DNA of 61,708 nt from a virus. Lineage: Duplodnaviria; Caudoviricetes. Both the position numbers and the translations under genes were made by a program. Where the stretch lies: positions 1-61,708 of the IMG/VR virus record IMGVR_UViG_3300047457_001340. One strand, 5' to 3'. The notes under the pieces were generated by a model, which had not been told where the DNA came from, did no database searches, and worked only from the letters and a program-made list of their open reading frames with translations. Of the stretch, positions 3,201 through 38,799 are shown one piece after another. Every line of letters starts with the position of its first letter. Within the stretch, counting starts at the first letter, position 1.

Positions 3201-3399
3201 TTGCCGGGGTATTGTGCTCAGACTTTTGCCAACGCAAATCACTATTGTTGCTATCATCATACCAGTCAAACTCATGAGCCTTATGGCCGTATGCTCCTGT
3301 GAGGAGATTGACATACTCCTCTTTGGTGAGTCCATTTTTAATGTACTCATTGGCTGCCTCTTTATCATCTCCATTTAGGATTCCATGTACCTTAACCAC
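241..3399 (-). CDS. Large multidomain virion-associated protein (helical repeats, acidic middle, C-terminal 'R..E.QSD' domain)
   Basis: 1052-aa ORF; helical repeats (ALNHPDVS, LASSPHLS, LFNNEHID); C-terminal H..IGWARVD..WVVDEMQSD motif of a kind seen in large phage virion proteins; LAKA/LKKA at the C-terminus. Confidence 0.6.
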   Translation of the reverse strand: MVKVHGILNGDDKEAANEYIKNGLTKEEYVNLLTGAYGHKAHEFDWYDDSNNSDLRWQKSEHNTPANNKKIYEALRKKHSGSPGHDADKFLRLANVDDKLVDHVLNKTLDSDELMALVRNKSVTPDQLHKIIKHTHKAENVGEYSKRQILDEALNHPDVSQDSVGYLASQKNVPLDTQAKALAHEKNQDIDAILKHLDKGVPSNKYTLNGLLSKLPEDKRKEFIDKKLGIAGGKHVDADEEGFDPATASWGEDNYKSGEGYGYDYEKTLASSPHLSDEQAEHIKRHGTENAKLNLFNNEHIDPKHAVEMWHKWENDDQDDGYDLDNFKEHLKDEHRDSIIQDVYDSGEAREQAEEEYPFSEYVNDIGPIFGGRRSSRQAERHLDDYYDYLREKHDWKEENPNHDPSLERGMDALSEIKDDNGRITGKAFKDWKNSNKDEVANYLQREHRFDPEDDSDWVDYDAAKDEHDEKHNPKEIDYANHDEYSISDHPKFDDRFSDSQSDFVDSPEGEGLRDSLYDGYSESLSDRESEIADSRANDKMDELMHDYDYLPNHVRGKIDSINNKEARRLMSERERAHAEASDKEKKIAGFLNETIPNRQNEHEFGQDLHHLNMLKEHAEANGGSIGIDKMNRAYPDLKEAWKKHFNKPKLSAQDIQDKIDATPKKKYALSYDRWGSDSMQNSTGGDQVVFRLDHTPDSLKEIDADPALKNVFDRITETSKRSGHPVNFNTIGWARVDTSDPKTWVVDEMQSDLENKGIRPQLEAAEAAGQKVDAEKLAALDKINDMHGDWRANLFTAVINHAKKHGVERIITHSPESKANFLGEKNVHTVYKESYRKAPKQLGFTPQPGNTLPVPSKMTSAFLNREETSKTAEDHIEAMDAHLKRARAHKYLASRLKQSGQGDLFNGPASDDNSAEKHMDHYEHHMNMARQHQSRLTGYSAGGENLEERMGNIDINKLERNGEMESASNDIAGGKPFAHEKDALLQKPMSNKAVLPGHVLELKPEKIKERLAKAEEEFEKEQLSFYTMRLLKAQIKVERAKEILKKAKSIK

Positions 3400-4795
3400 G
3401 TTTTGTCATCTCCAGCATGATTCTGCGAACATATTTGGGGTCCATATTGTTTTCGCGGGCATACTTATCAGCAGCCTTGTAAACCTCACTCACCTGATCT
3501 CTGGACCTATCAATCCTCATTTGGCGTTCGTCCGTTGGGAATTCGTCTTGATCTTCTTGGGGGGCTTCTTGCTCTTGCGGTGCCTCTTCTTGTTGTTGTT
3601 CTTGTTCAGGGGCTTCCTGTTGAGGTTGGGCAGAGTCTTGCTCTGGAGCCTCTTGTCCTTGGGCGTAGGGGTCTTGGCCTTCTTTTAGGGCTTCTGTGTT
3701 CTGATTGGGCTCTCTTAATGCCACCTGCATCTTGGCGGAGTCGGTCGTGTCCTTGTCCTTTAGGCGCATCTCGATTTCTTGGTTGGTGGAGTCGTCATAG
3801 GTGACTACTTCGCCTTTACCCCTGAGCTTGCCTAAAGTTTTGGCACGGGTGGATTCACTGATCTTTTTGCCGATGCCAATGGTCGCGGTGACATTAGCTC
3901 TAGTGACATAATCTTCTTGTAGGTTTTGGATGAAATTAAGAGCTGTAGATGGGAGCTTGGCCATCATTTCGGTGCCATTGGCGGTGAGGATGGTGCCGCC
4001 CATTTGAATCACCCAAGCTTTAAAAGCCTCTTGGCCAGCATTAAGGCCTTCTGATCTGGCAATCAGCTTAGCCTCATCGTCTTGTAGGGCGGTGCGATCA
4101 AAGGTGTCAACGGAAGAGGTTTTTTCTAGGTCTGCCTCGGCAACATGATTTACAACATAGTCATGGTATTCATTTGGGGACATTGAGCCTACAATACCTG
4201 AGTAATGGTGAAGTCCCGCATATTTAAGAGTCTTAACTGCGATATGCTGCTTGTCTAGCTCACGGTCCTCAAGCGTATTCAGAACCCGCATCGCCTTCTT
4301 ATGGTCTGGGTGTTTAGAAACACTGATTTTTAGGTTACTTAAGCCATCTTCCGACTTAAAGTAGGCCTTGGTTTCCTTCTCTGCCTCGGTCTCCTTATTC
4401 TCTTCACTGAGCTTCTTGACCTGAGCTTCTACTTCTTCACTGTATTCGACAATCTTGTCTTTGCCGGTGAGCTTAGCACCAATCAGGGCCGTTTCACCGT
4501 GTCTCAGTGTGGTCCCAACGCCAACAGAGAGGGTGAAGCCTGTCTTTTTGGCATAGGCCGCCCTCAGCTCTTCAAGCTTTTTGGTTTCAATATCTTTGAA
4601 ATAGAATCTTGCTTCATCTCCGCCGTAGGAGATCATTTCGCCGCCATTGGCCTTAACCCAATCGGCAATGAGGGTTTCGCCCGCCTCAATGATGTTGGCG
4701 ACTTCCTTCACCTTGGCGGGGTCATCGGACATCACTGCCCTTCCAACTCTACTTCCAGCATTGTCTGCATCGACTGAGCAAAACTTCATAATCAC
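3392..4795 (-). CDS. Tandem mCpol/GGDEF-palm-like nucleotide cyclase protein
   Basis: SVDADNAG...GGEMISYGGDE...LSVGVG...AKLTGKD matches the minimal Cas10/GGDEF palm; degenerate second copy at about aa 226-345; Q/E-rich tail. Confidence 0.75.
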   Translation of the reverse strand: MIMKFCSVDADNAGSRVGRAVMSDDPAKVKEVANIIEAGETLIADWVKANGGEMISYGGDEARFYFKDIETKKLEELRAAYAKKTGFTLSVGVGTTLRHGETALIGAKLTGKDKIVEYSEEVEAQVKKLSEENKETEAEKETKAYFKSEDGLSNLKISVSKHPDHKKAMRVLNTLEDRELDKQHIAVKTLKYAGLHHYSGIVGSMSPNEYHDYVVNHVAEADLEKTSSVDTFDRTALQDDEAKLIARSEGLNAGQEAFKAWVIQMGGTILTANGTEMMAKLPSTALNFIQNLQEDYVTRANVTATIGIGKKISESTRAKTLGKLRGKGEVVTYDDSTNQEIEMRLKDKDTTDSAKMQVALREPNQNTEALKEGQDPYAQGQEAPEQDSAQPQQEAPEQEQQQEEAPQEQEAPQEDQDEFPTDERQMRIDRSRDQVSEVYKAADKYARENNMDPKYVRRIMLEMTKRG

Positions 4796-5215: not shown

Positions 5216-6958
5216 CTATCTCTTTTTAATAATCTGAGCGGCCTTGCGTTTGATATCAATGATGAAAGCTTCCCTGCTCTCATCATCCCACTTCTTGTCG
5301 AAGGAGAGTTTTAAACTCTTTTTTACCGAATCAAATTTCATCTGTGGTTTTGGGAGGCCTGTGTAGCAATCGCAAAAGATTTCGCCACTGCCACAATCTT
5401 GACAGTCACCTTGCTCCTCATCCATACTCTTAGCTAGGTCTCTGGATGAGATTGATACTTGGGCGCTTTTTTTGATCTCATTGAACTGTGGCAGCTGTTT
5501 AATCTTGCCAGACTTCAATGATTCGAGGGCGTGGTTTTTTAATGACTCAAGTTCCTCATTGAGATCTGAGTAGTCAATGTGTTCAGACAATCTGTTTTTG
5601 AGGTCCTTGATTTTGACGCCCAGTTCTTTTCTTTGCTTGCCTGCCTCTACTAAGTCATCTTTATGGGATGGGGACTCAAGCACATTGATAAGCCGTTTGT
5701 GCTCATTGGTAAACTCTTTCTCGTCCATTTTAATGGATTTACCCATAAATTCCTTAACCTTCCCGTGCTTGATGAAGTGCTCGGTGTCTGCTGAGACATT
5801 AGAGAAATCATCGCCACTTTCCCATCCGTCATGATGAACCATGAAAGATGTGTGGGGGTCGTAAATAGAGTCTTTAATCATGTTGCGAAGAGTTTTATTG
5901 GCGGGATGCTTGGGGTTGTTTAAAACACTCTCTGCCGCAGCAACCTCGTTACCGCCCGCAGATCCTACTTTGATATACCCTCTTTTCAATGCTTCAAATT
6001 CGTCACCCTCTTTATTGGCGATCCAGTCTTCATGGTATTCATTTGGCTTAAGGCGATTAAACTTTCCATCAGGAGAAATCCATCCATGGAAAGAGTCATT
6101 GCCTGAGCCATAGGTGTGCTTTTTGATGTCGTTTGTGGGCTTCAGCTGCTGAAGCGTTACTCTCATTGCTTCGGGAGGGGTGCCGTGAACATATACCATT
6201 TTGGTTTTGTGCTTATTTGCTTCATCAATGGCTTCGTTCAATTCTGCGTTGGTGGGGGAATGAAGATGCTTGCCGATCATGTGGACATGATCTTCGTGAG
6301 TGGCATGAAAAACATGAACACCCTTCATGGTGCCATAGTAGTGGGGATGTCTGTCGTCTGAGCGCTCCAGTGGCTCCGGGTTCACTGCAAGCTGAAACTT
6401 ATGGCCTGAGGGAAGGAGAGTGAAGTGGTTGTCGTAGTGGCCTCCGTGGGAAACGCCTACACCCGGCTCACTCTTTCTACCATCTCCAAACACAAAATGA
6501 TTTGTGAGATATGACGAATGAAGGACGGATGTTTGGTTATATTTGTTTCCAAGGGCTTCAAGCTTTTTCTTGTTCTCTTCAGAGCCGTCATGGGGCACCA
6601 TGTAGCCCTTTTCTTCGGTGTCATATTTGCCGTGAGTCTCAACTGGCTTCAGTCCATGGGCAATAATATCTTGTTTCAGCTGTCGATGAGCCTCTTCGTT
6701 GTGCTCTCCACCAGTCTTTTGCGCAGAAAGGCAGGTGAAATGGTCTGGTAAAACAAGATCTCCTTTGGGCTTCACTTCTCCCGACAGGTGCTTGTGATAG
6801 TGGTCTGGGAGTGGCCAGTGGTCGAGACCTTTAGGTGCGCCCGACTTATCCCAATAGTCGCTTACAGCTTTTGTTTTGGGATCAAAGTCTGGTGTTATAG
6901 TGGATTTGGACAGGGTCTTGTGTTCTTTGGCCATAAGGTAATTATCCACCGAAAACAC
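5216..6958 (-). CDS. Multidomain cargo protein: SAM-lyase-like domain, GWxxPxG domain, C-terminal Cys cluster
   Basis: LSA..N...L..GKY..EE...LGNKYNQTSVL; HGWISPDG domain; CQDC...CDC; linkers LSKS, LERS, MGKS, IKKS, LAKS. Confidence 0.65.
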   Translation of the reverse strand: MFSVDNYLMAKEHKTLSKSTITPDFDPKTKAVSDYWDKSGAPKGLDHWPLPDHYHKHLSGEVKPKGDLVLPDHFTCLSAQKTGGEHNEEAHRQLKQDIIAHGLKPVETHGKYDTEEKGYMVPHDGSEENKKKLEALGNKYNQTSVLHSSYLTNHFVFGDGRKSEPGVGVSHGGHYDNHFTLLPSGHKFQLAVNPEPLERSDDRHPHYYGTMKGVHVFHATHEDHVHMIGKHLHSPTNAELNEAIDEANKHKTKMVYVHGTPPEAMRVTLQQLKPTNDIKKHTYGSGNDSFHGWISPDGKFNRLKPNEYHEDWIANKEGDEFEALKRGYIKVGSAGGNEVAAAESVLNNPKHPANKTLRNMIKDSIYDPHTSFMVHHDGWESGDDFSNVSADTEHFIKHGKVKEFMGKSIKMDEKEFTNEHKRLINVLESPSHKDDLVEAGKQRKELGVKIKDLKNRLSEHIDYSDLNEELESLKNHALESLKSGKIKQLPQFNEIKKSAQVSISSRDLAKSMDEEQGDCQDCGSGEIFCDCYTGLPKPQMKFDSVKKSLKLSFDKKWDDESREAFIIDIKRKAAQIIKKR

Positions 6959-6981: not shown

Positions 6982-7794
6982 TTAAACAGAGCCATCTTTA
7001 GGCTCTGGTCTGTCGGAAGGACCCACCTTGTCGTAGGGGTCGTGTGGAATGAAGTCCTTTCGAACAACTGCCAACTGAGGGAAGCGCTGTTGAATAGAAT
7101 TTCCATCTTTATCAAGGGTTTGCGTAGCCCTAATCTGATGGGGCAGGCCTATGACGGTGAAAACTGGTCTGGTGTAATAGTTGACCGAATAGATAATCCC
7201 ATTACCTGTGACAGGGTCATATCCGGGCCTTTCTCCAACCCACTCTAAGTACCCTTTTTCATTAATAATTACATCGACCCCAACCCGATACTGGACGCCA
7301 TAGGCATCCATAATGAAGTCAATACTTTTAGCTGGAAAGTGGAGCTTGTCGATTCCTGTCTGACTATGCTCTACAAGCTGATAGTAGCGAACCGTGTAGT
7401 CTGGCACCAAGATCTGATCAAAAAACTGAACATCAAGCTCCGTACCGTCATCGTAGGTAGAGGGAAGGACAATCGTGGCCTGATCGATGTCATAAGAACC
7501 ATTCATCACGAATTGGCGCTGATTACTATTGCCCTGAAAGGCTCCAATAAAAGCCCGCTCGCCGTAGTAGATAAAGCCGTTGTGGCAATCGGTACATCCG
7601 GGATCATGGTCCCCATCATGAATACTTAAGCGCCTCGGACATGGCACAGGTCTTGAATGCACCATGCGAATGCCCTTACTTTTAATCAGCTCATTGAAGG
7701 AATCTGGGTTCATTCCTGCCTGAGGCTGGCCACTGGGCTGCTGACCAAGGAGCTTGGATGGGAGCTTAATGTTTGGAATTTTTGGCTGCGACAT
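6982..7794 (-). CDS. Head-tail connector/neck protein (SPO1/Twort-like)
   Basis: PCP...H...CxxC.NG N-terminal motif typical of this neck protein family; structural gene context. Confidence 0.6.
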   Translation of the reverse strand: MSQPKIPNIKLPSKLLGQQPSGQPQAGMNPDSFNELIKSKGIRMVHSRPVPCPRRLSIHDGDHDPGCTDCHNGFIYYGERAFIGAFQGNSNQRQFVMNGSYDIDQATIVLPSTYDDGTELDVQFFDQILVPDYTVRYYQLVEHSQTGIDKLHFPAKSIDFIMDAYGVQYRVGVDVIINEKGYLEWVGERPGYDPVTGNGIIYSVNYYTRPVFTVIGLPHQIRATQTLDKDGNSIQQRFPQLAVVRKDFIPHDPYDKVGPSDRPEPKDGSV

Positions 7795-8263
7795 TTCTCA
7801 TGGCCTTCAGGTGCTTATCGAACCTTTTAACATAGTTGTGGTTGACTATTTCTGTTTCAGAAACCTTATTCACTTTATTTGGTCCAAATAACCAGCTATA
7901 AGCAGCTCTCTTGGGTCCAAACTTCTTTCTCAGAGTGCTCCAGTAGTACATCGCAATCTCCCTATCCATCTTTCGATTATGATTGAGGAGCTTTGTGATG
8001 GCCGAATTAGAGAGAGGTAGGATGTTTCCGTACTTCTTTCTTAGGTCCTTTGATCTTAGAACCAAGTCTCTGGCAGTGATTGGCATCAGACCATACCACC
8101 CACCAGCCCTAGTTCCCTTGTGCATCCCACCCTCAATCACTCTATGATTCAGGAAGATACCGCCCTTAGTTTCAACAAGGGCAATTGAGTTCAATTCGTT
8201 GTCAAATGATGCGAAAGCTAGTTGCGAAAAAAATAATGTTAAAACAATACAAGCATTAGTCAT
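7766..8263 (-). CDS. Secreted lytic transglycosylase/lysozyme-like protein
   Basis: Signal peptide (...LAFA); IALVET (catalytic Glu), GWYGLMP, AAYSW, YV motifs of the SLT fold. Confidence 0.7.
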   Translation of the reverse strand: MTNACIVLTLFFSQLAFASFDNELNSIALVETKGGIFLNHRVIEGGMHKGTRAGGWYGLMPITARDLVLRSKDLRKKYGNILPLSNSAITKLLNHNRKMDREIAMYYWSTLRKKFGPKRAAYSWLFGPNKVNKVSETEIVNHNYVKRFDKHLKAMRNVAAKNSKH

Positions 8264-9540: not shown

Positions 9541-10365
9541 TTAAAACGCCGTGAATTGAAGGTCCGTTCCGTAGTGGGCCTTCAACTGCATCGTGAGCTT
9601 ATCTCTCTCTGCTGTTAGCTCCTGAAGCCTTTGAGAAAGCCACTGAGGTCCTGCATTGCCAGTGCTTTGAGAAAGGCCGTCGATACCTACGCCAAACGAG
9701 TTAATGGGGAAAATGGCGGGCCCCATCTGTGAAAGAACAGCAATGGCGGCCATAACGCCAATGCAATGATTAACAATGTGTGGAATCTTATCGTTCTCAA
9801 ATCCTGCAACATAAGTGATGCGCCAGACATTGGGCCACATCTGCTGCCCACCCAGTGCCAATGCGCGGCCAGTGATGGAGAAAACAAAGTTGGCATCGGC
9901 GTTATTGATGGAGCCTGAGGTGGGGACAATGCGGATTAGGCCATTATCTTCTTGGGTGGTAACCCAATCGGTGGGGTAGGAGTATTCCTGTCCTTCCGCT
10001 CTTCCCGGCCAGAGGGCCTCAAGCTTCTCTACCTTCAGAAGAGGCCAGCGTGCCAGCCTGTGCGGAGAAAACTCCATGTCATCTGGACGCTTGAAGTCAA
10101 ACTTCTCTACATTTCTAACTGGGCTTACTGGGATTCTGATGGAAGATTCAAATTCAGACACTGCAGTGAGAATGAAATCCTGCAAGTCTTCGTCATCAAG
10201 CTCGTCATCTGTCATTGCTGCCTTGAGCGGCACTCCAAACAGATACTTCTTCTTGAACTTCTTTGGGCTCAGAAGCGGTCCCACTCTTGTGAAGCTGGGG
10301 TCTCCATTGCCTTGGTTTAGGGGTGTTGGCTGCCCAATCACTGGGCTGTCCTTTGAATCTGCCAT
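9541..10365 (-). CDS. Head completion/adaptor protein (SPO1/Twort-like)
   Basis: YLFG, ITYVAGF..IP and GIDGLSQS motifs. Confidence 0.65.
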   Translation of the reverse strand: MADSKDSPVIGQPTPLNQGNGDPSFTRVGPLLSPKKFKKKYLFGVPLKAAMTDDELDDEDLQDFILTAVSEFESSIRIPVSPVRNVEKFDFKRPDDMEFSPHRLARWPLLKVEKLEALWPGRAEGQEYSYPTDWVTTQEDNGLIRIVPTSGSINNADANFVFSITGRALALGGQQMWPNVWRITYVAGFENDKIPHIVNHCIGVMAAIAVLSQMGPAIFPINSFGVGIDGLSQSTGNAGPQWLSQRLQELTAERDKLTMQLKAHYGTDLQFTAF

Positions 10366-11047
10366 ACCTATATTGTACTAGCAAACCCTTAGGGCCATAA
10401 TTGGCCTTAAGCCAATTTTCGGCCTCTTTACAAGTAGATGTGGGGTGCTCTTGGAAGTAGCGGATGGCAACTCCACCCATTCGGGCTGCGCTGAATGAGG
10501 TGCCTCCTGCATCTTTGGGCGACCTTTCTAGGTAGGTGTCGCCAGCGTTGGCTATGGGGTCCTTGTTGCCCTTAATGGTTGTAGATACAGAGACAAGGCA
10601 GGGCAGGTCATACTTGGCTGGGAATCCGGGCTCGTCTAGGCCCTCATTTCCAGCTGCCACCACCACGAGTATGCCGCTGGAGGTGGCTCTTTTGATTGCA
10701 GAAAACTCAGCAATATCGGGTTTTTGTCCATTAAGGGAGAGGGATATAACTTTGGGTTTTTTGTCAGTAGCCTCTTCAATTGCCTTGGGAAGGTCCGAGA
10801 TATTATGCCAAATAACTTGCTCAGCCCTCACTGGCTTGACATCCTCAATGCTGAGTTGGTCATCGAGGGATTGGGCGACCTGTGTCCCATGGACATTCCA
10901 GCAGGCCTCTGGCCTATTGATGGGCATGTTCAAATAGCCAGTGTGTGACTTGGTGTTTCCCGTATCAACCTGAATGATTTCTATACCGTCAGCTAGGGCT
11001 GAGGTAGATAAAGACAGTGCTATTATGTATTTGACCCAATTGCTCAT
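10205..11047 (-). CDS. Secreted subtilisin-like (S8) serine protease
   Basis: Signal peptide; triad motifs VDTG, HGTQVA, GTSFSA and oxyanion AAGNEG; 3' end overlaps the next gene. Confidence 0.85.
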   Translation of the reverse strand: MSNWVKYIIALSLSTSALADGIEIIQVDTGNTKSHTGYLNMPINRPEACWNVHGTQVAQSLDDQLSIEDVKPVRAEQVIWHNISDLPKAIEEATDKKPKVISLSLNGQKPDIAEFSAIKRATSSGILVVVAAGNEGLDEPGFPAKYDLPCLVSVSTTIKGNKDPIANAGDTYLERSPKDAGGTSFSAARMGGVAIRYFQEHPTSTCKEAENWLKANYGPKGLLVQYRYGRFKGQPSDWAANTPKPRQWRPQLHKSGTASEPKEVQEEVSVWSAAQGSNDR

Positions 11048-11084
11048 GTACAATTGTACGCAAGTGGGCTAGTAGGCGATAGGA

Positions 11085-15369: not shown

Positions 15370-15789
15370 TTAGGGATTAAAGAACCTGTTGCCAGACCTT
15401 GGGGCAAAGATTTGAAAATGCACCCAGTTGGGCGTAGCACTAAAGCTCTCGCACCAAAGGCCCGCCTGCTCAAGTGTGGACACATTCGCCAAACACCAAG
15501 CCTGAAGCTCTTGGTTGGGGTCGGAGATATCCAAAGCCGCACCCTTTAAGTGCTGCGATTTCATAGGCACCTTAGATTCATCGAATGGGACTCCAGCCTT
15601 CTCAGCTTTTTCCCTATAGATTCTCAGGTGATCGGCCATGGTTCTCAGACCTGAAGTCACGGTCATTGGCTTGCCGTAGGCCTCCCTGATCTTATTCACC
15701 TTGGCAATGAGGATTGCTAGGTTTGCCCTCACATCCTCGGGCTGATCTTCAAGCTTTGCGCCTTTTAAAACTTCCTTGAGGGTAATCAT
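15370..15789 (-). CDS. Peptidase M15-family endolysin
   Basis: VTSGLR, SQHLKGAALD (H-x6-D) and WVH zinc ligands. Confidence 0.85.
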   Translation of the reverse strand: MITLKEVLKGAKLEDQPEDVRANLAILIAKVNKIREAYGKPMTVTSGLRTMADHLRIYREKAEKAGVPFDESKVPMKSQHLKGAALDISDPNQELQAWCLANVSTLEQAGLWCESFSATPNWVHFQIFAPRSGNRFFNP

Positions 15790-18764
15790 TGTTTAAACTT
15801 TCCGTGTTTAGCAAAGTGATCAACACTCACCCCCACATGAGACTCGGATGGAGTATGGGTGTCGCCATAGTGGTAGATGTCGCCGTTCATAGTTTGACCG
15901 GGATAAGCATCGCCAAAAATCTGACGAAGCTTCAGGGTGGCTGGGTGCCTCTTATTTGCGATAATGGGGTGAGCAGCGCTAAAGCTTGCGTCTCCGCCGT
16001 GGCCAACAGCAATCCAGCCAGAGTCAAGAGCCGCTGTGGCATTCTCTCCGGTTTTTTCGGCAATCCAATCCATGTGAGACTCATTGGGCTTCATTGGGTG
16101 AAAGTCACCCTCTGGAGATACCCAACCGTGAAGCTTTCCAGATTTACCATCGAAGATGTGCTTATTAAGCTTATTAGTAATTTCTTGAGCCTTTTTTAGC
16201 TTAGATGGGATGCTCTCATCAAACCAGTCTGCCGGGTTTTCTTTAGGAGCTTCTTTCTTGCCGCCCTCAATCACTTTGATTTGTGATTGAACCTTTTTGT
16301 CAGCTTTCTTCTGCTGAAGGCGCTTTAATTGAGCCTCACCCTCTTCTTGGGAAATCTCCACGCCCGTATCTGGGTTATGCCAATTATTGTCGGCAAAACG
16401 CTCCAGCTGAGATTGGGTCATGTTCTTGTGGGGAGACTTGACCTTTTCAAGCTCCTCGCTCTTGTTCATTTGTCCGCTGAGCTTGTTAAACTTCTGAACA
16501 TAGGGGTGGGAGTCGATCTGTTCTTGGGTCGCATTCTTGGCGGCTGTAATGCCATTGCGCCAAGCGTAGGCCATTCTAGGCTTATCGCCACCAAACACAT
16601 GATGTAGCCTGTCCCAGTGGTGATTAGCTATGTCCGCCTCGATGCTGGGGTTATTATTGAGGTGTTGCGTGATCTGGTCACTGGACATGGAAAGGATGTT
16701 TGAGTGTCTCTCCATGAGCTTTGGGTTTTTCTTAATAGCCTCTTTCACCGTAATGGGCATAAGTCCAGTAGAGCCTGCTGCTGTATCTCCAGCATTCAGG
16801 CCTACGGTCGTCTTCTGATGCTTCTTATTTTTTCCGTCAGACGACTCAATAGAGGCAATGTGCCTGAGACTGCCTTTTAGCTCTACCTTGGGGGACACAC
16901 GGGCGGGAACCACGCCTGCACTGGGTGAGGTTGGGGTGGCCATGGCGGTGGCAGATAAGATGGCTAGACCCGCTGCAGCATCCTTCAATGCCCCCTTATC
17001 TAGCTCACTCTTGTCTATATTGGCACTCTTGATCTTGCCGTATTTGGCAAATGTATTGGTGTCGGCTTCATGGAATTGCCAATTATCACCCTGCTCCGGC
17101 TTAATAGTGACACCAAAGGTGGGGCCCCAATGTTTGTGAGCAAGCTCCCTCAGCTTTAGGGTTGCTGGGTGCCTTCTGTTGCCAATAACAGCGTGGTGGC
17201 CAGAAGCCTCTTCCATTCCGGCATGGCCAACCGATATCCACCCCTGATCATAAGCATCCGAAATGGAGCTGATACCATGGCCATTGCGTATAACATCCAA
17301 ATGGTCCTCATGGGGCTGCATGTGGATGTAATCGCCTTCCGGCGTAATCCACCCATGAACCTTGGCGGGAGTGCCTAAGTGGTAATCAACTTTGTCTAGC
17401 GATTCGGGTTTGACCGCCTGCCTTCTGGCAAGCTCCGTCTTTTTATGCTCTATCTCTTTGGGGTCCACGAAATATGAGCGCGGCGGTTTTGAATACTCTT
17501 CAATCTGATCGGCCAACATGGTGGTTGGAGTAGAGGCTGTGTAATCTTTAATTCCATGTTTCTCATATAGGTTTCTAAGATGTATTTTAAGGTCCTGATT
17601 ATCAAATAAATCCAGAGTAGATGAGGCGCGGCTTCTTTTAGCAAATCCGCCCATATCCATGATTTTGAGTTCGCCCTTTGCATTTCTTCCTAATTGAATG
17701 TTATCAATGGGTTTATGCCCGGCAACAAATGCATCATGAAGGCTTTCTCTGACATGAGCAAGCTCGTGCTCGTTTAATTCTCCGTCTTTAATGGGGGTGA
17801 GAGATTCTCTAGCCAGATAAAGCTTATCCCCTTTTCTCCAAGTCCCGTGATGTTTGGGAGTGAGGGGATTTCCTGCCATGCCGGTGATGGCATCGTGCTC
17901 ACTCATGATGTCTCCGCGAGCTTCAGCCGGGGTTTTCTTGGGATTAAACTTGTTATATGGGGTAGTTTTGGAAACCTTTACAACTACATCTGGGGTGGCC
18001 TGATAAACATGGCCCTGATGTCCACTTCCTAAGTATTTCCAATCGTGAGTCTGAAATAATGGAGTTCCCCAATCAGCGCCTTTCTCAAGCTCTTCGGACT
18101 TGCCGAATTTGCGGTTGGGCTGGTTCCAGAAAGCCTCGCCATCTGGCTCCTGTATATCAGAGCGGATTATCTTTAACCCGCTTTTCTTCTCGGCTAACAC
18201 ATACATAGCCGATCCAAGCCCCTTCCGTTGATGCTCTTCGTCTACCCACACGGAGAAATTGCCAGTACCATCTATGGGGTGTAGCGCAGAGCCCTTTTCT
18301 CTAAAAAGAGCCTCTCCGACCTCATTGCCATTTGAGTCATGGGCTGATAGGCTGTGTATTTTCTTTCCTTCTCCTGAATCATCCTTCCAAGAGCGGTAGT
18401 AAATTTTATACCCCTCCTTCTTCCAATCCCCATTCTTGCCCTTGTCGAGGTCCTCGGCCTTATTCAAAAGGCCTGAGGCCTTCATGGACTCAACGACTTG
18501 GTCCATCACCTCTTTGGTAGGCTCAGCTCCCATAGCCTGCATGACAGCCTTAAAGCGGTCAGCCTTATTTGGAATCTGAGAGACCTGCTGAACCAGCTCA
18601 GGTGGGAGCTTCTCTGCTTTAGGGTCTAAGATCTGAACTAGGGCTGAGACCTGAGAAAACGTAGCGGGGTCCTCAAGGTCCGATTCCTTGAGGTTTGCGG
18701 CTAGGTTTATAAGCAGTTCTACAAGCTCGTTTTGGGGGATGGGCATGTCCCTATTATCCCCCAA
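15786..18764 (-). CDS. Polyprotein: GNAT + kinase-like + GWxxPxG + SLT + small domain + GWxxPxG
   Basis: VDEEHQRKGLGSAMY; YLGSGHQGHVY/VVVK/IMDMG; IASIES/GLMP; domains separated by KSEELEK-type linkers. Confidence 0.8.
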   Translation of the reverse strand: MGDNRDMPIPQNELVELLINLAANLKESDLEDPATFSQVSALVQILDPKAEKLPPELVQQVSQIPNKADRFKAVMQAMGAEPTKEVMDQVVESMKASGLLNKAEDLDKGKNGDWKKEGYKIYYRSWKDDSGEGKKIHSLSAHDSNGNEVGEALFREKGSALHPIDGTGNFSVWVDEEHQRKGLGSAMYVLAEKKSGLKIIRSDIQEPDGEAFWNQPNRKFGKSEELEKGADWGTPLFQTHDWKYLGSGHQGHVYQATPDVVVKVSKTTPYNKFNPKKTPAEARGDIMSEHDAITGMAGNPLTPKHHGTWRKGDKLYLARESLTPIKDGELNEHELAHVRESLHDAFVAGHKPIDNIQLGRNAKGELKIMDMGGFAKRSRASSTLDLFDNQDLKIHLRNLYEKHGIKDYTASTPTTMLADQIEEYSKPPRSYFVDPKEIEHKKTELARRQAVKPESLDKVDYHLGTPAKVHGWITPEGDYIHMQPHEDHLDVIRNGHGISSISDAYDQGWISVGHAGMEEASGHHAVIGNRRHPATLKLRELAHKHWGPTFGVTIKPEQGDNWQFHEADTNTFAKYGKIKSANIDKSELDKGALKDAAAGLAILSATAMATPTSPSAGVVPARVSPKVELKGSLRHIASIESSDGKNKKHQKTTVGLNAGDTAAGSTGLMPITVKEAIKKNPKLMERHSNILSMSSDQITQHLNNNPSIEADIANHHWDRLHHVFGGDKPRMAYAWRNGITAAKNATQEQIDSHPYVQKFNKLSGQMNKSEELEKVKSPHKNMTQSQLERFADNNWHNPDTGVEISQEEGEAQLKRLQQKKADKKVQSQIKVIEGGKKEAPKENPADWFDESIPSKLKKAQEITNKLNKHIFDGKSGKLHGWVSPEGDFHPMKPNESHMDWIAEKTGENATAALDSGWIAVGHGGDASFSAAHPIIANKRHPATLKLRQIFGDAYPGQTMNGDIYHYGDTHTPSESHVGVSVDHFAKHGKFKQ

Positions 18765-23075: not shown

Positions 23076-25661
23076 TTAACCCGAAGCCTGAGCAGGCTCC
23101 TCCTCCTTATCGTCTACCCGGCCTGCTGGACCCATCTCAAGATCTGAGAGTTCCATCTGCTGTGGCTCTCCACGGGGGCCGGGAAACTGTGTATAAACAA
23201 TACAACGATTGTAGTCGGTGACACATTCAACAGCCACTGGACAGCGGCCATTTCGCACCTTGTCTAACAAGAAGACGATTCTGTTTTTCTTGGCATCATC
23301 CTCGGAGCGGTTAATCGTGATGACATTGGAGGCCTTCCTGACAATCCCAAAGCTTTCAGCCACATCGGACATCCTGAGGTAGTCGGTGCCTTTTTTAGAG
23401 AGCTGGTGTCCAAGACGGTTCACTTGAGCCCCACCAGCACCTGCCACATTCAGCTCTAAACAAAGCTGCTTCAGCTCTGAATAGACAAACTCTTGAAGGA
23501 GTCGGGTGTTGTCGAGGGACTTGAATCTTGAGGTGGTCAAGCATTGGCCGTAATCACACAAGAAAAGCTCGAAGGGCCACTCTTTATGGAGCATTCTAGC
23601 CGCCTGCTGCACCTGCTCCACGGTAGCTTCGTGGCTGTACATGTACCTGATCTTAACGTTCTCTTTTAGAAGCTCGTCGGCAATCTTTAGGGCTTCCTTC
23701 TCGTCTTGATTGAGCAGGGTGTATGGGGCCATAAGCTTGGTGAAGGGGACGCCGCTGAAGCGGGATAGGAACCTCAGTTTGGTGGGAAGCTCTTCGTCCT
23801 CATGGACGGTTAGAAACACCTTTTTGCCTGCATTGACTGCAAAGTAGGCCAGATTGGGCATGAGCATGCTGTTGTGTGTTAAGATACCGTTGGCAACGAA
23901 AAGGTTGTCTCCGTCTACCGATAGGTCAAATGTTTCTTGTTCTCCGACATATTCAATTGAAACAACCTCATCTCTATGAAATGAATCGTCAAAATTAAGC
24001 CCATCAGATTCCGCTGTATTGGCAAGAATCCTCCACAAACCTGAGTTGGGGCGCTTTTTTTGGAGCTTTTTCTTTGTTTCAGATGGCAGCAGGTTAGAGG
24101 CTTCGTCGGAGTAATACACCCACTCCCCACCAAGCTTAGAATTTTCTCTACCCACAGCTTTTTCAAGACGACCGTCGCCCCATTTATCCGTCAAACTAAG
24201 TTCTTTTATAAGCCTTCTTGATGACCTTCCGGTTACAAAGATTGAATATACCCCATAGTTTTCCAATGTTCTGTTTTTAAGTTTGACTGTTTTGTGCGAT
24301 GATTTAACATTGGACACATATCCAAGACGCAATAACACTTGTTGAAGGTATCGAACTTGGTGTTCATAATGAAGCGATAAAACTACAGACGACCCCCTCT
24401 TATCCACTGTTCCATCTGCATCCATAATACCAGCAATATAAGCTGCTGCAGATTCCTTGGACCAAGATAAAACATCAATCAAACATTTGTTTTCTTTGGT
24501 TCCTGTCCTAAGACCAAACGCTTCTAGCTGATCTGCAATAAAAGCATTAGCCCAAATAGACTCGCCATTATCGCCCTTTTTGTGCGTTCTTGGATTGTTG
24601 AGTCCCATATTTCCAAGAACTCTTAATAACTTATTTTTCACCGAACTATCTTTATGAATAGCCCAACTGAGATATCGAGTGTTGAAACTATTTTTAAAGT
24701 AGCTGCCGTCGCCAAAAGTAAATCCCAATAACCAAGCGATGTCATTGGGTATTTTTTTTGTTCCAATCCAGTTATCAATGGGAACAACTACAGGATCTCC
24801 AACGCTAATGTCCCTAAGTTGTTTTTGCTCTATTCCATCTCCGCTATCCAGCGCGTGTATGTGATCAAGTGTTGAATCAATATACAGGCCACTGCTGAGT
24901 GTCATACGGTAAAGTGGTTTAATGCCATTTCTATGAACAGCAAGAATCTTTCTTTTCGCGTTGTAGCCAACAACATAATTATGTTGAGATAGCGTTATAT
25001 CCTTAATTTTAACCAAACCCTTATCAGTAGGGACCAACGAATCCCCGCCTAAGCATTTTCCCGTATTCGACCCCCCAAGAAAAGTGGTCCAAGTCTGCGG
25101 GAAAAGTCCGCCGTTCATGGCGGCATCGATTGCGGCAATGCCCGTTGGGATTGCATTTTGAGCCTGAGCAGAGGCCAAATCGATCATGGAGACATGGTCC
25201 CCGAAGGAGGCGACCTTTTCCTTCTCAAAGTCTACCTTGGAGATGAGGTCGAGGTGTTTCTTGGTGATTTCATAAGCATGCTCCCGGTTGCCTGAGTTGT
25301 AGAGTGGGGCTGCCTCTTTGTAGGCTAAGATAAAGAGGCTTGCTCGAATGAAGCCCGTCAGCTCTTTTTTAAGGTAGTTCTCATCCGGTTCACTCTCTTG
25401 GATCTTCTTAAACTCGGCATAATACTTGGAGGCGTCCGTTGCTCCTTGTTTATTGATCTCGTTGGAGAGTGCCGATCGGGTAGGAAGGCTGTTGTGCTCT
25501 GTGTATAAGTCCTTAAATTTACGAAAGAACCACCGCAGCTCTTGAGAGAAGTAGCCCTCTTCTAAGTAGGCCACGCACCGGGCGGCAAAGCGTTCGTCCT
25601 GTAACATCTGCTTAATAACCTGACGCTGGAAGTCTAGACCAAATTTTTCATTGCCGCTCAT
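23076..25661 (-). CDS. DnaB-like replicative helicase with intein
   Basis: IPTGI..ID...GG, Walker A GGSNTGK|S, CDY, AQVNR, AES, KVRNG. Confidence 0.92.
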   Translation of the reverse strand: MSGNEKFGLDFQRQVIKQMLQDERFAARCVAYLEEGYFSQELRWFFRKFKDLYTEHNSLPTRSALSNEINKQGATDASKYYAEFKKIQESEPDENYLKKELTGFIRASLFILAYKEAAPLYNSGNREHAYEITKKHLDLISKVDFEKEKVASFGDHVSMIDLASAQAQNAIPTGIAAIDAAMNGGLFPQTWTTFLGGSNTGKCLGGDSLVPTDKGLVKIKDITLSQHNYVVGYNAKRKILAVHRNGIKPLYRMTLSSGLYIDSTLDHIHALDSGDGIEQKQLRDISVGDPVVVPIDNWIGTKKIPNDIAWLLGFTFGDGSYFKNSFNTRYLSWAIHKDSSVKNKLLRVLGNMGLNNPRTHKKGDNGESIWANAFIADQLEAFGLRTGTKENKCLIDVLSWSKESAAAYIAGIMDADGTVDKRGSSVVLSLHYEHQVRYLQQVLLRLGYVSNVKSSHKTVKLKNRTLENYGVYSIFVTGRSSRRLIKELSLTDKWGDGRLEKAVGRENSKLGGEWVYYSDEASNLLPSETKKKLQKKRPNSGLWRILANTAESDGLNFDDSFHRDEVVSIEYVGEQETFDLSVDGDNLFVANGILTHNSMLMPNLAYFAVNAGKKVFLTVHEDEELPTKLRFLSRFSGVPFTKLMAPYTLLNQDEKEALKIADELLKENVKIRYMYSHEATVEQVQQAARMLHKEWPFELFLCDYGQCLTTSRFKSLDNTRLLQEFVYSELKQLCLELNVAGAGGAQVNRLGHQLSKKGTDYLRMSDVAESFGIVRKASNVITINRSEDDAKKNRIVFLLDKVRNGRCPVAVECVTDYNRCIVYTQFPGPRGEPQQMELSDLEMGPAGRVDDKEEEPAQASG
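23871..25055 (-). mobile_element. Intein with LAGLIDADG endonuclease in the helicase Walker A
   Basis: CLGGDS...GILTHN|S; LLGFTFGDG and IAGIMDADG; AT-richer than the flanks. Confidence 0.93.
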
Positions 25662-26383: not shown

Positions 26384-26833
26384 GTGAGAAAGATTCTTGC
26401 CCTCTTTTTTTTATATTCAACACTGACATATGCCGATGAACAGTCCACTCTTCGGGTGGGTGCCATGGACAATGACAGGCTGGTCACATTTGGGGCTCAA
26501 TCCAACCTCATCAGCGATTACATCTATACCAACTGGGAAGTGGGGACCTATTATAGCCCTTCCATGAGGTCTTTTTTGGGGTTCTATGGCGGTGGGGTGC
26601 GGGTGGATGCTGGTGACATTCTTGCTCAGGTGGGCATTGCCCTTGGTGGAATCACAAGCACCGATGAATACCTTGGGGGGCATCTCCAGTTTACTGAAAA
26701 CCTTTTCTTGGGACTAAAAAGCCACCGTGATGCTGCCCTCGGGGCTTTCTTTAAACACATCAGTAGTGGCGGCATTTCAAGCCCCAATCTGGGGAGAAAC
26801 TTTGTTGGGATTGAAATCAGAATCCCCCTGTGA
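26384..26833 (+). CDS. PagL-like lipid A 3-O-deacylase (outer-membrane beta-barrel)
   Basis: Signal peptide, alternating beta pattern, LGG.LQF.E and KHISSGG...PNLG.NF motif. Confidence 0.75.
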   Translation: MRKILALFFLYSTLTYADEQSTLRVGAMDNDRLVTFGAQSNLISDYIYTNWEVGTYYSPSMRSFLGFYGGGVRVDAGDILAQVGIALGGITSTDEYLGGHLQFTENLFLGLKSHRDAALGAFFKHISSGGISSPNLGRNFVGIEIRIPL

Positions 26834-30897: not shown

Positions 30898-32364
30898 TCA
30901 AGCTTTTCCGATGTTCTGGATGATACCAGATTTACGGGGAGCGAAGATAATTAAGGTGCCCGCGAGCCAAAGCAAAAATTCTTTGCTAGTGCTGACCTGC
31001 GCCAGATTGATCTTCATGAGAGGAGCCAATTGCTTCCACACCATGATCTCAGGACGCATGTCGAGCATGTATGCCGTTGCGCCGCCTTCAACCTTCTCAC
31101 CGCGATCGGTGAAAACGGTCGAAGCGCCTGCAGCCTTGACGTAGCCGACAAACTTCTTGCCTGCGCCGTTCTTGTCAGAGCGGTACACAGCGTAGTGAGT
31201 CGGAGCAGCGCCGCCAGCCGGAGCGGAGATGGTGACCTTGATGTTCTTGCCATCAGCGTCAACCGTCACTTCGGAGGTAGCAGCGGTAGCAGCACACTCG
31301 CCCTGCTCATTAACAGCAGAGACAGAGTAGCTGTACTTTTCGCCAAGCTTCAGCTTGCTGTCGCCATCGGTGGCGAGAGCTGCTGCTGCAGCAGCCGGAG
31401 CCTGAGGAACGCTTGCGCGGTCGTTCTGGGACTTTGGAGCATCTTTTGGCTTCAAGAAGAGGTTCGGGCGGAGGGCGATCGAGCCTGCGGTCGTCACCAT
31501 CTCACGAACAACATAACCAGCTTTTCCATCAGCAATACCGAGGACGTTCACACGCTCCTTCGGGAAGAATTGCTTAATGAAATCGCTCATCTGTTTCGGA
31601 GCGAGGTGGAGCTGGTCAGGGCGTCCGAAATTCTGCATCAAGACGTTTGCGAGGTCTTCGATGGTGCTTTCGGAGATGATATCACCTTCCATGTCCTTGA
31701 TGATGGAGTCAGCGCCGCCGAAACCATCGAATGCACGGGCCTGAGCCGAGAAGTCACTGTCGCCGGAGCGCAGCTGAACTTCTAAACCACTCAGGTTGAG
31801 GTTCTGCATCTTGGAAGGAATTGCAGAGATTTCGCCGTCAAATTTCCCGTTGTTCGAGAAGTCAGCGTTACCTTTGTACAATTCGCGCTCAAGGCGCTCA
31901 AGCATCCACAGAGTTCCAGCTTGAGATTCACGGCTTTCAGCATCACCTGCGAAAGAGCGAACCAAGGTGGAGGCCAACGAGACACCACGGCGGGTGCTCA
32001 GGAAGACCACCTTCTGTGCATGACGATTGTACTCTGAATCGTTCATGGAAGGGCTCCCGGACTCGGGTACAAAGGCGCTGCCTCCGTCTCCGTAGGAGTT
32101 GGTCCTTACATATTGCTCAACCAAGCTGTAAGCGCGATCTTGAGGGATCGAAGGCCACATGATGAGGTTGGAAGCGTCGTAAGTGACAGATTTCAGGGTA
32201 GAATCGAGGGATTCGACCTGAAGAGCAGCACCGCCAACCAGAGAGGTCGGAGCGCCGAGATAACCATGACCTGCTTGAAGAGTTTTTGCCAGCTCTTCAG
32301 CCTGTCCCATATCGAGAGCCTGTGAATTTACAGCTCCCAATTGCGTGTTGAAATCAGAAAACAT
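30898..32364 (-). CDS. Major capsid protein (SPO1/Twort-like) with Ig-like insertion
   Basis: ELAKT.QAG...GGAALQVESLD..L, QLAPLMK..LA, AP.K..I.N; strong codon bias. Confidence 0.92.
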   Translation of the reverse strand: MFSDFNTQLGAVNSQALDMGQAEELAKTLQAGHGYLGAPTSLVGGAALQVESLDSTLKSVTYDASNLIMWPSIPQDRAYSLVEQYVRTNSYGDGGSAFVPESGSPSMNDSEYNRHAQKVVFLSTRRGVSLASTLVRSFAGDAESRESQAGTLWMLERLERELYKGNADFSNNGKFDGEISAIPSKMQNLNLSGLEVQLRSGDSDFSAQARAFDGFGGADSIIKDMEGDIISESTIEDLANVLMQNFGRPDQLHLAPKQMSDFIKQFFPKERVNVLGIADGKAGYVVREMVTTAGSIALRPNLFLKPKDAPKSQNDRASVPQAPAAAAAALATDGDSKLKLGEKYSYSVSAVNEQGECAATAATSEVTVDADGKNIKVTISAPAGGAAPTHYAVYRSDKNGAGKKFVGYVKAAGASTVFTDRGEKVEGGATAYMLDMRPEIMVWKQLAPLMKINLAQVSTSKEFLLWLAGTLIIFAPRKSGIIQNIGKA

Positions 32365-32392: not shown

Positions 32393-33106
32393 TTACCCAA
32401 TTAAAGCCTTGATAGTAGCCATGTCCTGTTCGGTAGCACGGTTAGTTTCAAAGCGAGTAATCAGGGCAGTTTCCACTGGCTTCCCCGATTTTTTAAGATT
32501 CAAAAGCTTGTCAATCACTTCAGCCTTATTGAGCGACTGGCCTTCTTCCGACTTGCGGAGAGGGGTTAGGCCAGATACGCCCTTGCGGGGCATCGGTGCA
32601 TTGGCAATCTTTTCGATTTTTTCGTTCAGTGCTGCAACGGTCTTAGAAAGGGATTCAATCGACTCACCGAAGGACTTCTTCAGAGCTTCCACTTCTTCGT
32701 TAGTCTTGATTTCTTCTTTCTTAACTTCTTGAGCCTGTTCAGACTTCAAGAGACCGCGACTTTCCATTTGAGACTTCAAGGCTTCAAATTCGGACTTCAG
32801 AGCGTCATCGCTCATTTCTTCCTCTTCTTCTTCCTTGTCGTCTTCCTTCTTATCCTTCTTTTCGTCTTCTTCTTCAGCAGCTTCTTCAGCAGCAGGCTCA
32901 GCAGCTTCATGAGCGGCTGGTTCTGCAGCTTCGTCTTCCTGAGCTTCTTCAGCTTCGGGAGATGCGGCCAAAGGACGAGAAGGATCTTCAGCGTACTGGA
33001 AGTCGTCCATCTTAGACAACTCTTCGTACTCTCTCAGAGCTTCATCCAGCACCTGTTCGATGCTCTTCAGAAGCTCTTCCTTGCTCTGTTTGGTTTCCTT
33101 AGCCAT
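32393..33106 (-). CDS. Scaffolding protein
   Basis: Acidic coiled coil upstream of the capsid gene; many LxKS/KT/KA sites; P.PRK motif. Confidence 0.75.
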   Translation of the reverse strand: MAKETKQSKEELLKSIEQVLDEALREYEELSKMDDFQYAEDPSRPLAASPEAEEAQEDEAAEPAAHEAAEPAAEEAAEEEDEKKDKKEDDKEEEEEEMSDDALKSEFEALKSQMESRGLLKSEQAQEVKKEEIKTNEEVEALKKSFGESIESLSKTVAALNEKIEKIANAPMPRKGVSGLTPLRKSEEGQSLNKAEVIDKLLNLKKSGKPVETALITRFETNRATEQDMATIKALIG

Positions 33107-37802: not shown

Positions 37803-38231
37803 CTAAAAATTGGGCCCCATTGCATCCATCTCTTCAAGCTTCCTAAGAAGGGGGTCTGCTTCCTTTGCTGCCTTCGACTCTTTCAGAGGCTTTGCTCTAG
37901 CCATCATCTCCCGATCTTTGTCTGTTATACTGATTTGGTTTTTCTGAGTAGAAACGGGCAGTTCCTTAACTTGAGTTTGGGCCTGCTGTTGAGGCTCTGA
38001 GGGTTTGGCCATCAGCTTCTTGGTGAATGCCTTCAGGAAGGTTATTTCTTGCTCGGTGAGGTTTGTGGTGGATGGGGTTCCCATCAACTCAGCGAGCTGA
38101 GATTCCACCCAAGACGAAAACTCAACCTGAACCTCTTTTTGAACAGCCTCATCCTTGGTGACGTTCTTGAGGGTTAAGTCCAAAAGCCTTCTATAGGCGT
38201 TAATCTTTTCGATAACAAAATCTCTATCCAT
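37803..38231 (-). CDS. Hypothetical protein
   Basis: 142-aa ORF in operon. Confidence 0.65.
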   Translation of the reverse strand: MDRDFVIEKINAYRRLLDLTLKNVTKDEAVQKEVQVEFSSWVESQLAELMGTPSTTNLTEQEITFLKAFTKKLMAKPSEPQQQAQTQVKELPVSTQKNQISITDKDREMMARAKPLKESKAAKEADPLLRKLEEMDAMGPNF

Positions 38232-38799
38232 CTTCTTCTTCTCCTACAATCTTATCTACCAATCCCAGTTCTTTAGCGTGCTCTGCGGAAATGTAAGTGT
38301 CTAAGGCGCACTTCTTTTCCCAAAATTTGGTGTCCTTACCCGACCTCTCGGCGTAGATTTGGTACATCATTTTTCTAGTAATTTTAGATTGCTCAGCCTG
38401 CGACTCGAATGATTTGGGGGTTAGCGATGCTTCTTCGTGGCCATCGTGAATCATAATGAAGGCGTTGGGGTGGATAATTCTTTCATCTGCGGCTTGAAGA
38501 ACAATAGAGCCCATGGAGAATGCCGACCCAACTACCTCTATTGTAACGTGACATGGGCAGGCCTTGATCGAGTCATAGATAGCCATGCCAGAATAAAAGC
38601 ACCCGCCAAAGCTATTCAAGACAACATGAATGGGAGCCTCTGGGTTTTGCTTGCTGAGTAGATGGAGGGCTGTGATGAACCGTTCGGCACTCACATGATC
38701 AATCCCTCCCTCTAAAGAGTCCATCAAGAATATGGTTCTTGATTCCAGATGGATCTTATAATCAAAGGCCCGGTCAATGCTTTCTCGATTGAATCTCAT
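38224..38799 (-). CDS. clpP: ClpP-like serine protease
   Basis: LNSFGG, AIYD, G.AFSMG, MIH, DTYISA..A..LGLVD. Confidence 0.9.
   Translation of the reverse strand: MRFNRESIDRAFDYKIHLESRTIFLMDSLEGGIDHVSAERFITALHLLSKQNPEAPIHVVLNSFGGCFYSGMAIYDSIKACPCHVTIEVVGSAFSMGSIVLQAADERIIHPNAFIMIHDGHEEASLTPKSFESQAEQSKITRKMMYQIYAERSGKDTKFWEKKCALDTYISAEHAKELGLVDKIVGEEEDG

Follow-up and report, generated by a model that had tools for sequence, protein, structure and literature searches.

Phages carry wall-cutting enzymes in the virion and inject enzymes together with their DNA. The subject of this report is a multi-enzyme polyprotein of 992 residues encoded at 15786..18764 (-) in a 61.7-kb viral record (IMG/VR record IMGVR_UViG_3300047457_001340; "the window" below means this whole stretch of 61,708 nucleotides, to which all coordinates and strands refer), and in particular a lytic transglycosylase-like module which, in that protein, stands behind a hydrophobic leader and a candidate protease cut site.

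Several described systems come close to this arrangement. The polyvalent proteins of phages and conjugative elements, as presented in the pertinent passages of Iyer et al. (2017; PMC5512222), combine several unrelated enzymes in one polypeptide, and those passages postulate a role for lysozyme-type domains in opening the wall during invasion, as well as processing of the proteins and their delivery together with the DNA. The text on T7 gp16 in PMC8954989 describes a head-internal protein, ejected at infection, with a transglycosylase domain that works in the periplasm, membrane-inserting regions, and Glu37 named as the catalytic residue. In signal-anchor-release (SAR) endolysins such as P1 Lyz, according to the portions of PMC6116005 and PMC7912344 that deal with them, a wall-degrading enzyme stands behind a weakly hydrophobic, Gly/Ala/Ser-rich N-terminal segment that takes the Sec route and keeps the enzyme tethered to the inner membrane. 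Finally, the T4 internal proteins, which bear capsid targeting sequences, and the ejection proteins of the SPN3US/phiKZ type are reported, in the relevant sections of PMC9026906 and PMC10052503, to be cargo that is cut at the motif of the capsid and portal protease and then delivered to the host.

The window polyprotein is of the polyvalent kind, with at least two unrelated effector-type domains in one polypeptide: a weak GNAT-like piece, a kinase-like piece (from an Atlas lead only), a duplicated domain and the transglycosylase-like core. Its relatives add NUDIX, GNAT and ART-PolyVal modules. Our overall reading of the sequence is that this polyprotein would be virion cargo cut in the prohead, and that the leader thereby freed would direct the wall-cutting domain to the periplasmic side of the inner membrane; we hold the chances of this being right to be evenly balanced.

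The leader and the domain behind it

The polyprotein contains the motif K-[SA]-E-[ED]-L-[ED]-K four times in almost the same form, the third copy reading K-S-E-L-D-K. Motif 1 (KAEDLDK, residues 102 to 108, 18441..18461 (-)) has a putative cut after K108, and motif 2 (KSEELEK, residues 222 to 228, 18081..18101 (-)) ends the GNAT-like piece (residues 109 to 228). Cleavage after K590 in motif 3 (KSELDK, residues 585 to 590, 16995..17012 (-)) would create a new N-terminus at G591, and a putative cut at motif 4 (KSEELEK, residues 768 to 774, 16443..16463 (-)) would end a 184-residue fragment, G591-K774. Around motif 3 the protein reads ...IDKSELDK, followed after the putative cut by GALKDAAAGLAILSATAMATPTSPSAGVVPARVSPKVELKGSLRHIASIESS.... 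The n-region, GALKD (residues 591 to 595, 16980..16994 (-)), places Lys594 immediately ahead of a hydrophobic core, AAAGLAILSATAMA (residues 596 to 609, 16938..16979 (-)), of 14 residues, 71% of them Ala, Gly, Ser or Thr, with a 12-residue hydropathy maximum of 1.76. As read from the sequence, a Pro/Ser/Thr-rich linker, TPTSPSAGVVPARVS (residues 610 to 624, 16893..16937 (-)), leads from there to the divergent family-1 lytic transglycosylase-like core (residues 625 to 765, 16470..16892 (-)), with the motifs IESS, GLMPIT, AYAWRNG and HPYVQKF. The original prediction, which had proposed that cleavage after ELDK unmasks a cryptic internal signal peptide ahead of a transglycosylase domain at 16470..16994, located these elements correctly: codon 591 begins at nucleotide 16994, and the interval encodes residues 591 to 765. 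None of the other three linkers of the polyprotein has a hydrophobic run like that behind motif 3.

A full scan of 1.84 billion representatives returned 910 relatives at E ≤ 1e-3 (counted as cluster representatives). Leaders were surveyed in 154 proteins, namely the best 150 of the 910 plus earlier matches, comprising 156 domain instances and 97,819 residues. An uncharged hydrophobic run was found more than 45 residues inside the protein and at most 90 residues upstream of the core in 108 of the 156 instances, and 13 to 45 residues from the protein start in 18 others, giving 126 non-N-terminal leaders. Classical N-terminal signal peptides were present in 12 instances (16 in the tree-based count), and the last 18, several of them truncated entries, had neither a leader nor a signal peptide. 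Just upstream of the enzyme core lay 125 of all 154 hydrophobic runs in the surveyed proteins, and the GLMPIT segment within the core accounted for 12 of the remaining 29.

The cores of the 126 leaders had a median length of 14 residues (interquartile range, 13 to 15) and consisted of 35% Ala and 13% Gly, with Ala, Gly, Ser and Thr together making up 64%. A Lys or Arg stood no more than 3 residues upstream of the core in every one of them, and a Pro/Ser/Thr/Ala-rich linker with a median of 20.5 residues followed it. An L-x-K-small motif was present within 16 residues upstream of 121 leaders, compared to 14.6% of random windows, and the strict form L-[EDQ]-K-[GSN] preceded 71 of them, compared to 3.3%. 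The leaders were uniformly hydrophobic and not amphipathic (median moment, 0.12), and 85 showed a small-xxx-small-xxx-small pattern. Conservation of the hydrophobic stretch in homologs, a test which the original prediction had set beforehand, was thus observed. Position, length, flanking Lys/Arg and upstream motif were kept among relatives of only 30 to 60% identity, and the same layout of motif, leader and core was kept in Myxococcus phage Mx1, the sole cultured phage with the transglycosylase module studied here.

A functionally neutral Ala-rich spacer, hydrophobic by accident, would agree with the low complexity of the region and with the behavior of the single sequence, for which an equally hydrophobic, uncharged run of at least 14 residues arose in 430 of 2000 shuffles (21.5%). 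The run stands beyond chance by virtue of its position and conservation across the family, not as a single sequence. The features kept at such low identity, Mx1 included, and the lack of a run in the other three linkers both oppose a neutral spacer, which we consider extremely improbable.

The window phage also encodes a stand-alone paralog of 165 residues (7766..8263 (-)), with a classical signal-peptide-like N-terminus at residues 1 to 18 (8210..8263 (-)). The paralogy put forward in the original prediction proved real (33% identity over 129 residues, E = 6e-25), the quoted pairs IALVET/IASIES, GLMPIT in both, AAYSW/MAYAW and NYVKRF/PYVQKF being aligned in the comparison. The ordinary N-terminal signal ascribed to the paralog was found as well, in the form of a hydrophobic segment ending in small residues, MTNACIVLTLFFSQLAFA followed by Ser, and the same was seen in its three database relatives. 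In having both a leader-type copy and a signal-peptide-type paralog the window phage is unusual; G001 and Mx1, both complete or nearly so, and three partial relatives had the leader-type copy as their only family member. On a tree of 155 cores, from which those matched at fewer than 100 positions or preceded by fewer than 8 residues had been dropped, leader and classical signal peptide required 7 state changes, compared to 15.4 in shuffles, and well-supported branches force at least 2. In one relative (P0016), a second ELEKG and hydrophobic leader head a different module of ∼100 residues at residues ∼240 to 360, so that the leader may be a portable tag, not confined to the transglycosylase.

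The designation of the enzyme as an SLT domain was borne out by profile-level homology and catalytic motifs, though not by a Pfam SLT match of the window protein. This protein had no match in Pfam, NCBIfam or PHROGs, a six-frame translation was also without an SLT (PF01464) match, and PDB sequence and profile searches with the domain returned nothing. A 43-sequence family profile was aligned by hhalign with a profile of EmtA, Slt70-C, MltC-C and MltD at 64.4% probability (E = 6.4e-5), and at 91.3% (E = 9.6e-7, 115 columns) after T7 gp16-N had been added to this Escherichia coli enzyme profile; against T7 gp16 alone, the probability was 32% (E = 4.8e-4). Glu640 (codon at 16845..16847 (-)) was invariant in all 43 aligned family members, in register with Glu37 of T7 gp16 and with the E-S motif that is invariant in the E. 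coli enzymes. The pairs GLMP/GLMQ, AYAWRNG/AYNxG and PYV/RY were likewise in register, the second motif having Pro in place of Gln. PF01464 was matched at E ≤ 0.1 by 14 of the 44 short family members, with P0078 alone exceeding the curated cutoff (33.5 versus 21.3 bits), and a PHROGs search with the 43 family members gave no matches. Of 30 Atlas clusters with names, 19 were of SLT type, which we take as no more than a lead. On these comparisons we accept residues 625 to 765 as a divergent SLT-type (family-1 lytic transglycosylase-like) domain.

A motif shared with head proteins

The motif E[ED]L.K was observed 9 times in the 57 open reading frames (ORFs) of the window (18,641 residues), compared to 1.29 times in shuffles. 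Three of the sites lay in the polyprotein, where SELDK forms a fourth variant, and of the other six, five ended no later than residue 33 in the capsid, scaffold-like or portal protein, with one elsewhere. The major capsid protein (30898..32364 (-)), which showed up to 34% identity to capsid proteins of SPO1-like Herelleviridae, has AEELAK at residues 22 to 27 (32284..32301 (-)), about where its similarity to other capsid proteins starts. Two E-E-L-x-K motifs are found at residues 9 to 14 and 27 to 32 (33011..33082 (-)) of an acidic scaffold-like protein whose gene immediately precedes that of the capsid protein, and two E-D-L-S-K motifs at residues 21 to 26 and 28 to 33 (43985..44023 (-)), at the N-terminus of the portal protein. 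At the capsid N-terminus, L-x-K was invariant in all seven aligned sequences (those of the window, CP-51, Mx1 and four uncultured relatives). The scaffold-like protein, of 237 residues (32393..33106 (-)), has many L-x-K sites followed by Ser, Thr, Ala or Met along its length, as expected if the maturation protease degrades it.

The candidate enzyme for these cuts is a ClpP-family head maturation protease (38224..38799 (-); phrog_94, 8e-43; PF00574, 9e-37). Since the capsid, scaffold-like and portal proteins all have E-E/D-L-x-K at their N-termini, this ClpP-like prohead protease probably cuts at the motif, and the polyprotein, which carries it as well, would therefore be head cargo. SPN3US and T4 are documented cases of one motif on capsid, portal and ejected cargo alike, which makes prohead cutting and packaging the best reading of the window motif (the Glu-type proteases of such phages have L/I-x-x-E as an alternative cut motif). 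We regard the cutting of the polyprotein in the prohead, by the ClpP-like protease and after this motif, as likely. A literature search found no published cut site of Herelleviridae-type capsid proteins that would anchor cleavage after L-x-K, and no Mx1 virion proteome.

In the window, the N-terminal motif of the capsid protein consists of the Lys at the putative cut followed by TLQAGHGYLGAPTSLVGGAALQVES (region 32185..32364 (-)). A copy of this capsid motif is present in many of the multi-enzyme proteins of relatives (P0006-P0011 and P0014) and in a second Mx1 ORF of 1267 residues (L025), where it may act as a capsid-targeting mimic. Such copies speak for sequence-specific head targeting in this phage group, and the sub-family patterns M-L-G-x-P and G-A-L-A-G-S-A-P of the hydrophobic run are kept beyond mere hydrophobicity. 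Both observations would suit a run that acts within the virion, by docking to the capsid interior, the portal or the tail lumen, by oligomerization, or by holding the enzyme inactive until release. We judge this distinctly unlikely, given that the run is confined to the module whose substrate lies outside the cytoplasm, that true signal peptides replace it in the stand-alone relatives, and that its layout, with an n-region, a hydrophobic run and a Pro-rich stretch, is that of targeting signals.

Possible fates of the freed N-terminus

In the mechanism that we propose, the ClpP-like maturation protease would cut the polyprotein inside the prohead, one product being the 184-residue fragment with its Lys-bearing n-region, weakly hydrophobic Ala/Gly-rich run, Pro-rich tether and transglycosylase-like domain containing Glu640. 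The pieces would then leave the head along with the DNA at the next infection, a step that we favor with some reserve. The leader would be silent while buried, acting solely as a free N-terminus in a signal-anchor-like manner. Once freed, it would place the wall-cutting domain on the inner membrane, facing the periplasm; the sister pieces without a leader (acetyltransferase-like and kinase-like) would remain cytoplasmic. The likeliest route for this, offered tentatively, would be the host Sec/YidC machinery after delivery into the cytoplasm. The fullest form of the scheme, in which the capsid-protease cut sorts co-packaged effectors and the injected enzyme is re-exported to the periplasm by the Sec system of the new host while its leaderless sisters stay inside, must be considered doubtful.

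Any membrane step must be preceded by cleavage, because a repeat domain flanks the leader, modules follow the enzyme, and the partners need cytoplasmic substrates. The repeat is a duplicated domain of ∼120 residues (15789..16148 and 17016..17375 (-); 39% identity, E = 2e-26), with one copy on either side of the transglycosylase module and the consensus HGW..PEGD..GW[IV][AS]VGH..RHPATLKLR; sequence and profile searches gave no PDB or Pfam match for it. Among the partner modules of the 35 long family members were 6 NUDIX, 6 GNAT, 2 ART-PolyVal (one of them below the cutoff), 2 VTC, 1 S-adenosylmethionine lyase and 1 PI3/4-kinase-like module, with 22 members giving no match. Together with the classical signal peptides that occupy the same place in stand-alone relatives, this order of events favors a targeting role for the freed N-terminus.

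A different arrangement would hold if the polyprotein were not head cargo. In the producing cell, the run could serve as a signal anchor, with the N-terminal part cytoplasmic and the enzyme periplasmic, or a cytoplasmic protease could free the piece for export, the enzyme then serving lysis or envelope remodeling late in infection. In agreement with this, 102 of 151 instances have the enzyme as their last module, arranged as in a bitopic membrane protein, and the gene adjoins that of an M15 peptidase of endolysin type and lies outside the head gene block. We nevertheless consider it very unlikely. The linker motif recurs at the N-termini of head proteins, and in 49 of the 151 instances, the window protein and 48 others, further modules of cytoplasmic or duplicated type follow the enzyme. 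In addition, with 14 residues the Ala-rich run is short for a segment that spans a membrane stably (that of P1 Lyz has 24), and there is no evident logic in fusing NUDIX, GNAT or ART enzymes to a lysis enzyme.

The leader was also compared with the known types of targeting signal. The run, at residues 596 to 609 of 992, is not at the N-terminus of the translated protein, as a Sec signal would be, and would become N-terminal only after the proposed cut between K590 and G591. It ends in A607-M-A609 before T610, with small residues at -3 and -1. For a SAR segment, an N-terminal span of some 20 residues or more, the run is too short and is internal, while its Ala/Gly/Ser/Thr-rich composition fits. 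A twin-arginine signal was rejected for want of Arg-Arg, a lipoprotein signal for want of Cys, and a prepilin-type signal because of the Lys at +3 after the Gly and a core of just 14 residues. The Pro/Ser/Thr linker of ∼20 residues behind the leader makes a retained anchor a likelier look than a cleaved signal; this suggests a tether behind an uncleaved anchor, and the leader would more often be retained in that way than removed by signal peptidase.

To the frequency of comparable runs in shuffled sequences must be added several points that weigh against the proposed targeting of a packaged and cut fragment. The hydropathy of the window leader, 1.76 (Kyte-Doolittle 12-residue maximum), is lower than that of nine exported E. 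coli proteins (1.96 to 2.75), of the classical signal peptides of the family (median, 2.34) and of the P1 Lyz SAR segment (2.97), and Lys594 is offset by Asp595. In many relatives the run ends in M-L-G-x-P, without an obvious signal peptidase site. The window polyprotein lacks the copy of the capsid N-terminus seen in many relatives, and its gene, 12 kb away from that of the capsid protein, has genes for nucleotide metabolism and repair as its neighbors. The many instances in which the enzyme comes last would also suit an ordinary membrane protein whose N-terminal part is cytoplasmic. Finally, the purpose of a wall-cutting enzyme after DNA entry is hard to explain. The localization switch envisaged in the original prediction is therefore only partly upheld: a conserved leader behind a recurring L-x-K motif makes it plausible, but the leader is weak for a plain cleavable Sec signal.

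Some of these points would be met if the fragment were cut and packaged without using Sec. It would then pass from the tail into the periplasm before the DNA does, and its Ala/Gly-rich N-terminus would dip directly into a membrane and hold the enzyme at the entry site. This would resemble membrane-active wall-cutting ejection or tape-measure proteins, or the cleavage-exposed fusion peptides of enveloped viruses. A short, non-amphipathic leader rich in Ala, Gly, Ser and Thr, often with the small-xxx-small pattern and too weak for a typical Sec signal, is consistent with such a role, the wall has to be breached before DNA entry and not after, and T7 gp16, as portrayed in PMC8954989, is a head-internal transglycosylase able to work in the periplasm during ejection. 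On the other side, a soluble enzyme freed in the periplasm would need no leader, and the sister modules seem bound for the cytoplasm, so that cargo would have to be sorted during ejection. The Lys/Arg conserved on the N side of all 126 leaders fits the positive-inside rule of Sec-type insertion, and stand-alone relatives have classical Sec signal peptides in place of the leader. On balance this alternative appears unlikely, although the sequence data do not distinguish Sec insertion from the cytoplasm from direct insertion from the periplasmic side.

Setting of the locus and comparison with known systems

The window was judged to be 37% complete, which implies a phage of ∼165 kb. In addition to the capsid protein and the polyprotein, for which translation begins at a TTG codon and the database version at Met7 (986 residues), it encodes a portal protein, the ClpP-family head maturation protease, a terminase, replication genes and a PagL-like lipid A 3-O-deacylase (26384..26833 (+); PF09411, E = 6.8e-10). 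The latter implies a Gram-negative host, with outer-membrane remodeling being possible. A pattern-based search of bacterial and archaeal genomes yielded 550 candidate stretches, none of which was a relative, and thus gave no prophage copy and no named host. Neither a tblastn search of cultured phages with P0078, the member positive in Pfam, nor a single-protein locus search in viral contigs found anything. A promoter and terminator scan around the polyprotein gene remained at chance level, and a scan for membrane proteins near both paralogs gave no clear indication of a lysis cassette.

Several essential genes of the window phage appear to have been invaded by selfish elements (hosts at 23076..25661 (-), 45640..48792 (-) and 54192..58562 (-)). 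These are a DnaB-like helicase with an intein bearing a LAGLIDADG endonuclease, a DNA polymerase with a LAGLIDADG-type match at residues 214 to 390, and the large subunit of the terminase, with a helicase/endonuclease-like insert in its N-terminal part. A minimal CRISPR polymerase (mCpol) domain (PF18182, E = 4.5e-22) was detected in a protein of 467 residues (3392..4795 (-)). The coordinate pair 5216..6958 (-) and 10205..11053 (-) corresponds to an S-adenosylmethionine lyase/DUF3293-like protein of 580 residues, whose lyase/DUF3293-like domain is also found inside the polyvalent homolog P0069, and to a subtilase (S8)-like protein that sits amid virion genes.

If the fullest form of the proposed scheme is true, a virion-delivered protein would use host secretion from within, with proteolysis as an address switch. 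The scheme would also provide a concrete rule by which mixed cargo is sorted between cytoplasm and envelope, only the module with an extracytoplasmic substrate having a leader behind a probable capsid-protease site. The rule is testable because a cultured relative, Mx1, keeps the layout, and it could inform the design of phage-delivered protein cargo. In this phage group, the E-x-L-x-K motif offers a way to predict head cargo and the mature ends of proteins.

The literature searches gave no account of a virion transglycosylase with a leader next to a cut site, and the systems outlined at the beginning differ from the present one in several respects. In the pertinent passages on polyvalent proteins (PMC5512222), processing is attributed mainly to embedded zincin-type peptidases, whereas the window polyprotein apparently uses the motif of the capsid protease itself. 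The terms "signal peptide" and "transmembrane" have no occurrences in the text of that paper, while the wall-cutting module described here has a conserved leader behind its cut site. T7 gp16 is a podovirus core protein of 1318 residues, which the passages on it in PMC8954989 do not describe as cut, and it has its enzyme domain at the N-terminus with putative membrane regions downstream. The window phage, in contrast, has a Herelleviridae-type capsid, and its enzyme is an excisable module with the leader upstream. A long contractile tail is recorded for Mx1 in the abstract of its genome announcement; a tail-sheath model matched one of four relatives, below the cutoff.

The signal segment of P1 Lyz consists of 24 uncharged residues (positions 5 to 28) at the N-terminus of a late lysis protein as translated, whereas the window leader has 14 residues, is markedly less hydrophobic, and would become N-terminal only through proteolysis of a 992-residue protein. 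The T4 and SPN3US proteases cut after Glu (A-x-E), and the cleavages described in the relevant sections of PMC9026906 and PMC10052503 remove targeting propeptides, with no report there of a new sorting signal being created. T7 gp16, the SAR endolysins and the T4/SPN3US cargo each share a part of the logic proposed here: a head-internal wall-cutting enzyme that is ejected, a weakly hydrophobic segment that tethers such an enzyme to the inner membrane, and cargo that is cut at the motif of the capsid protease before delivery.

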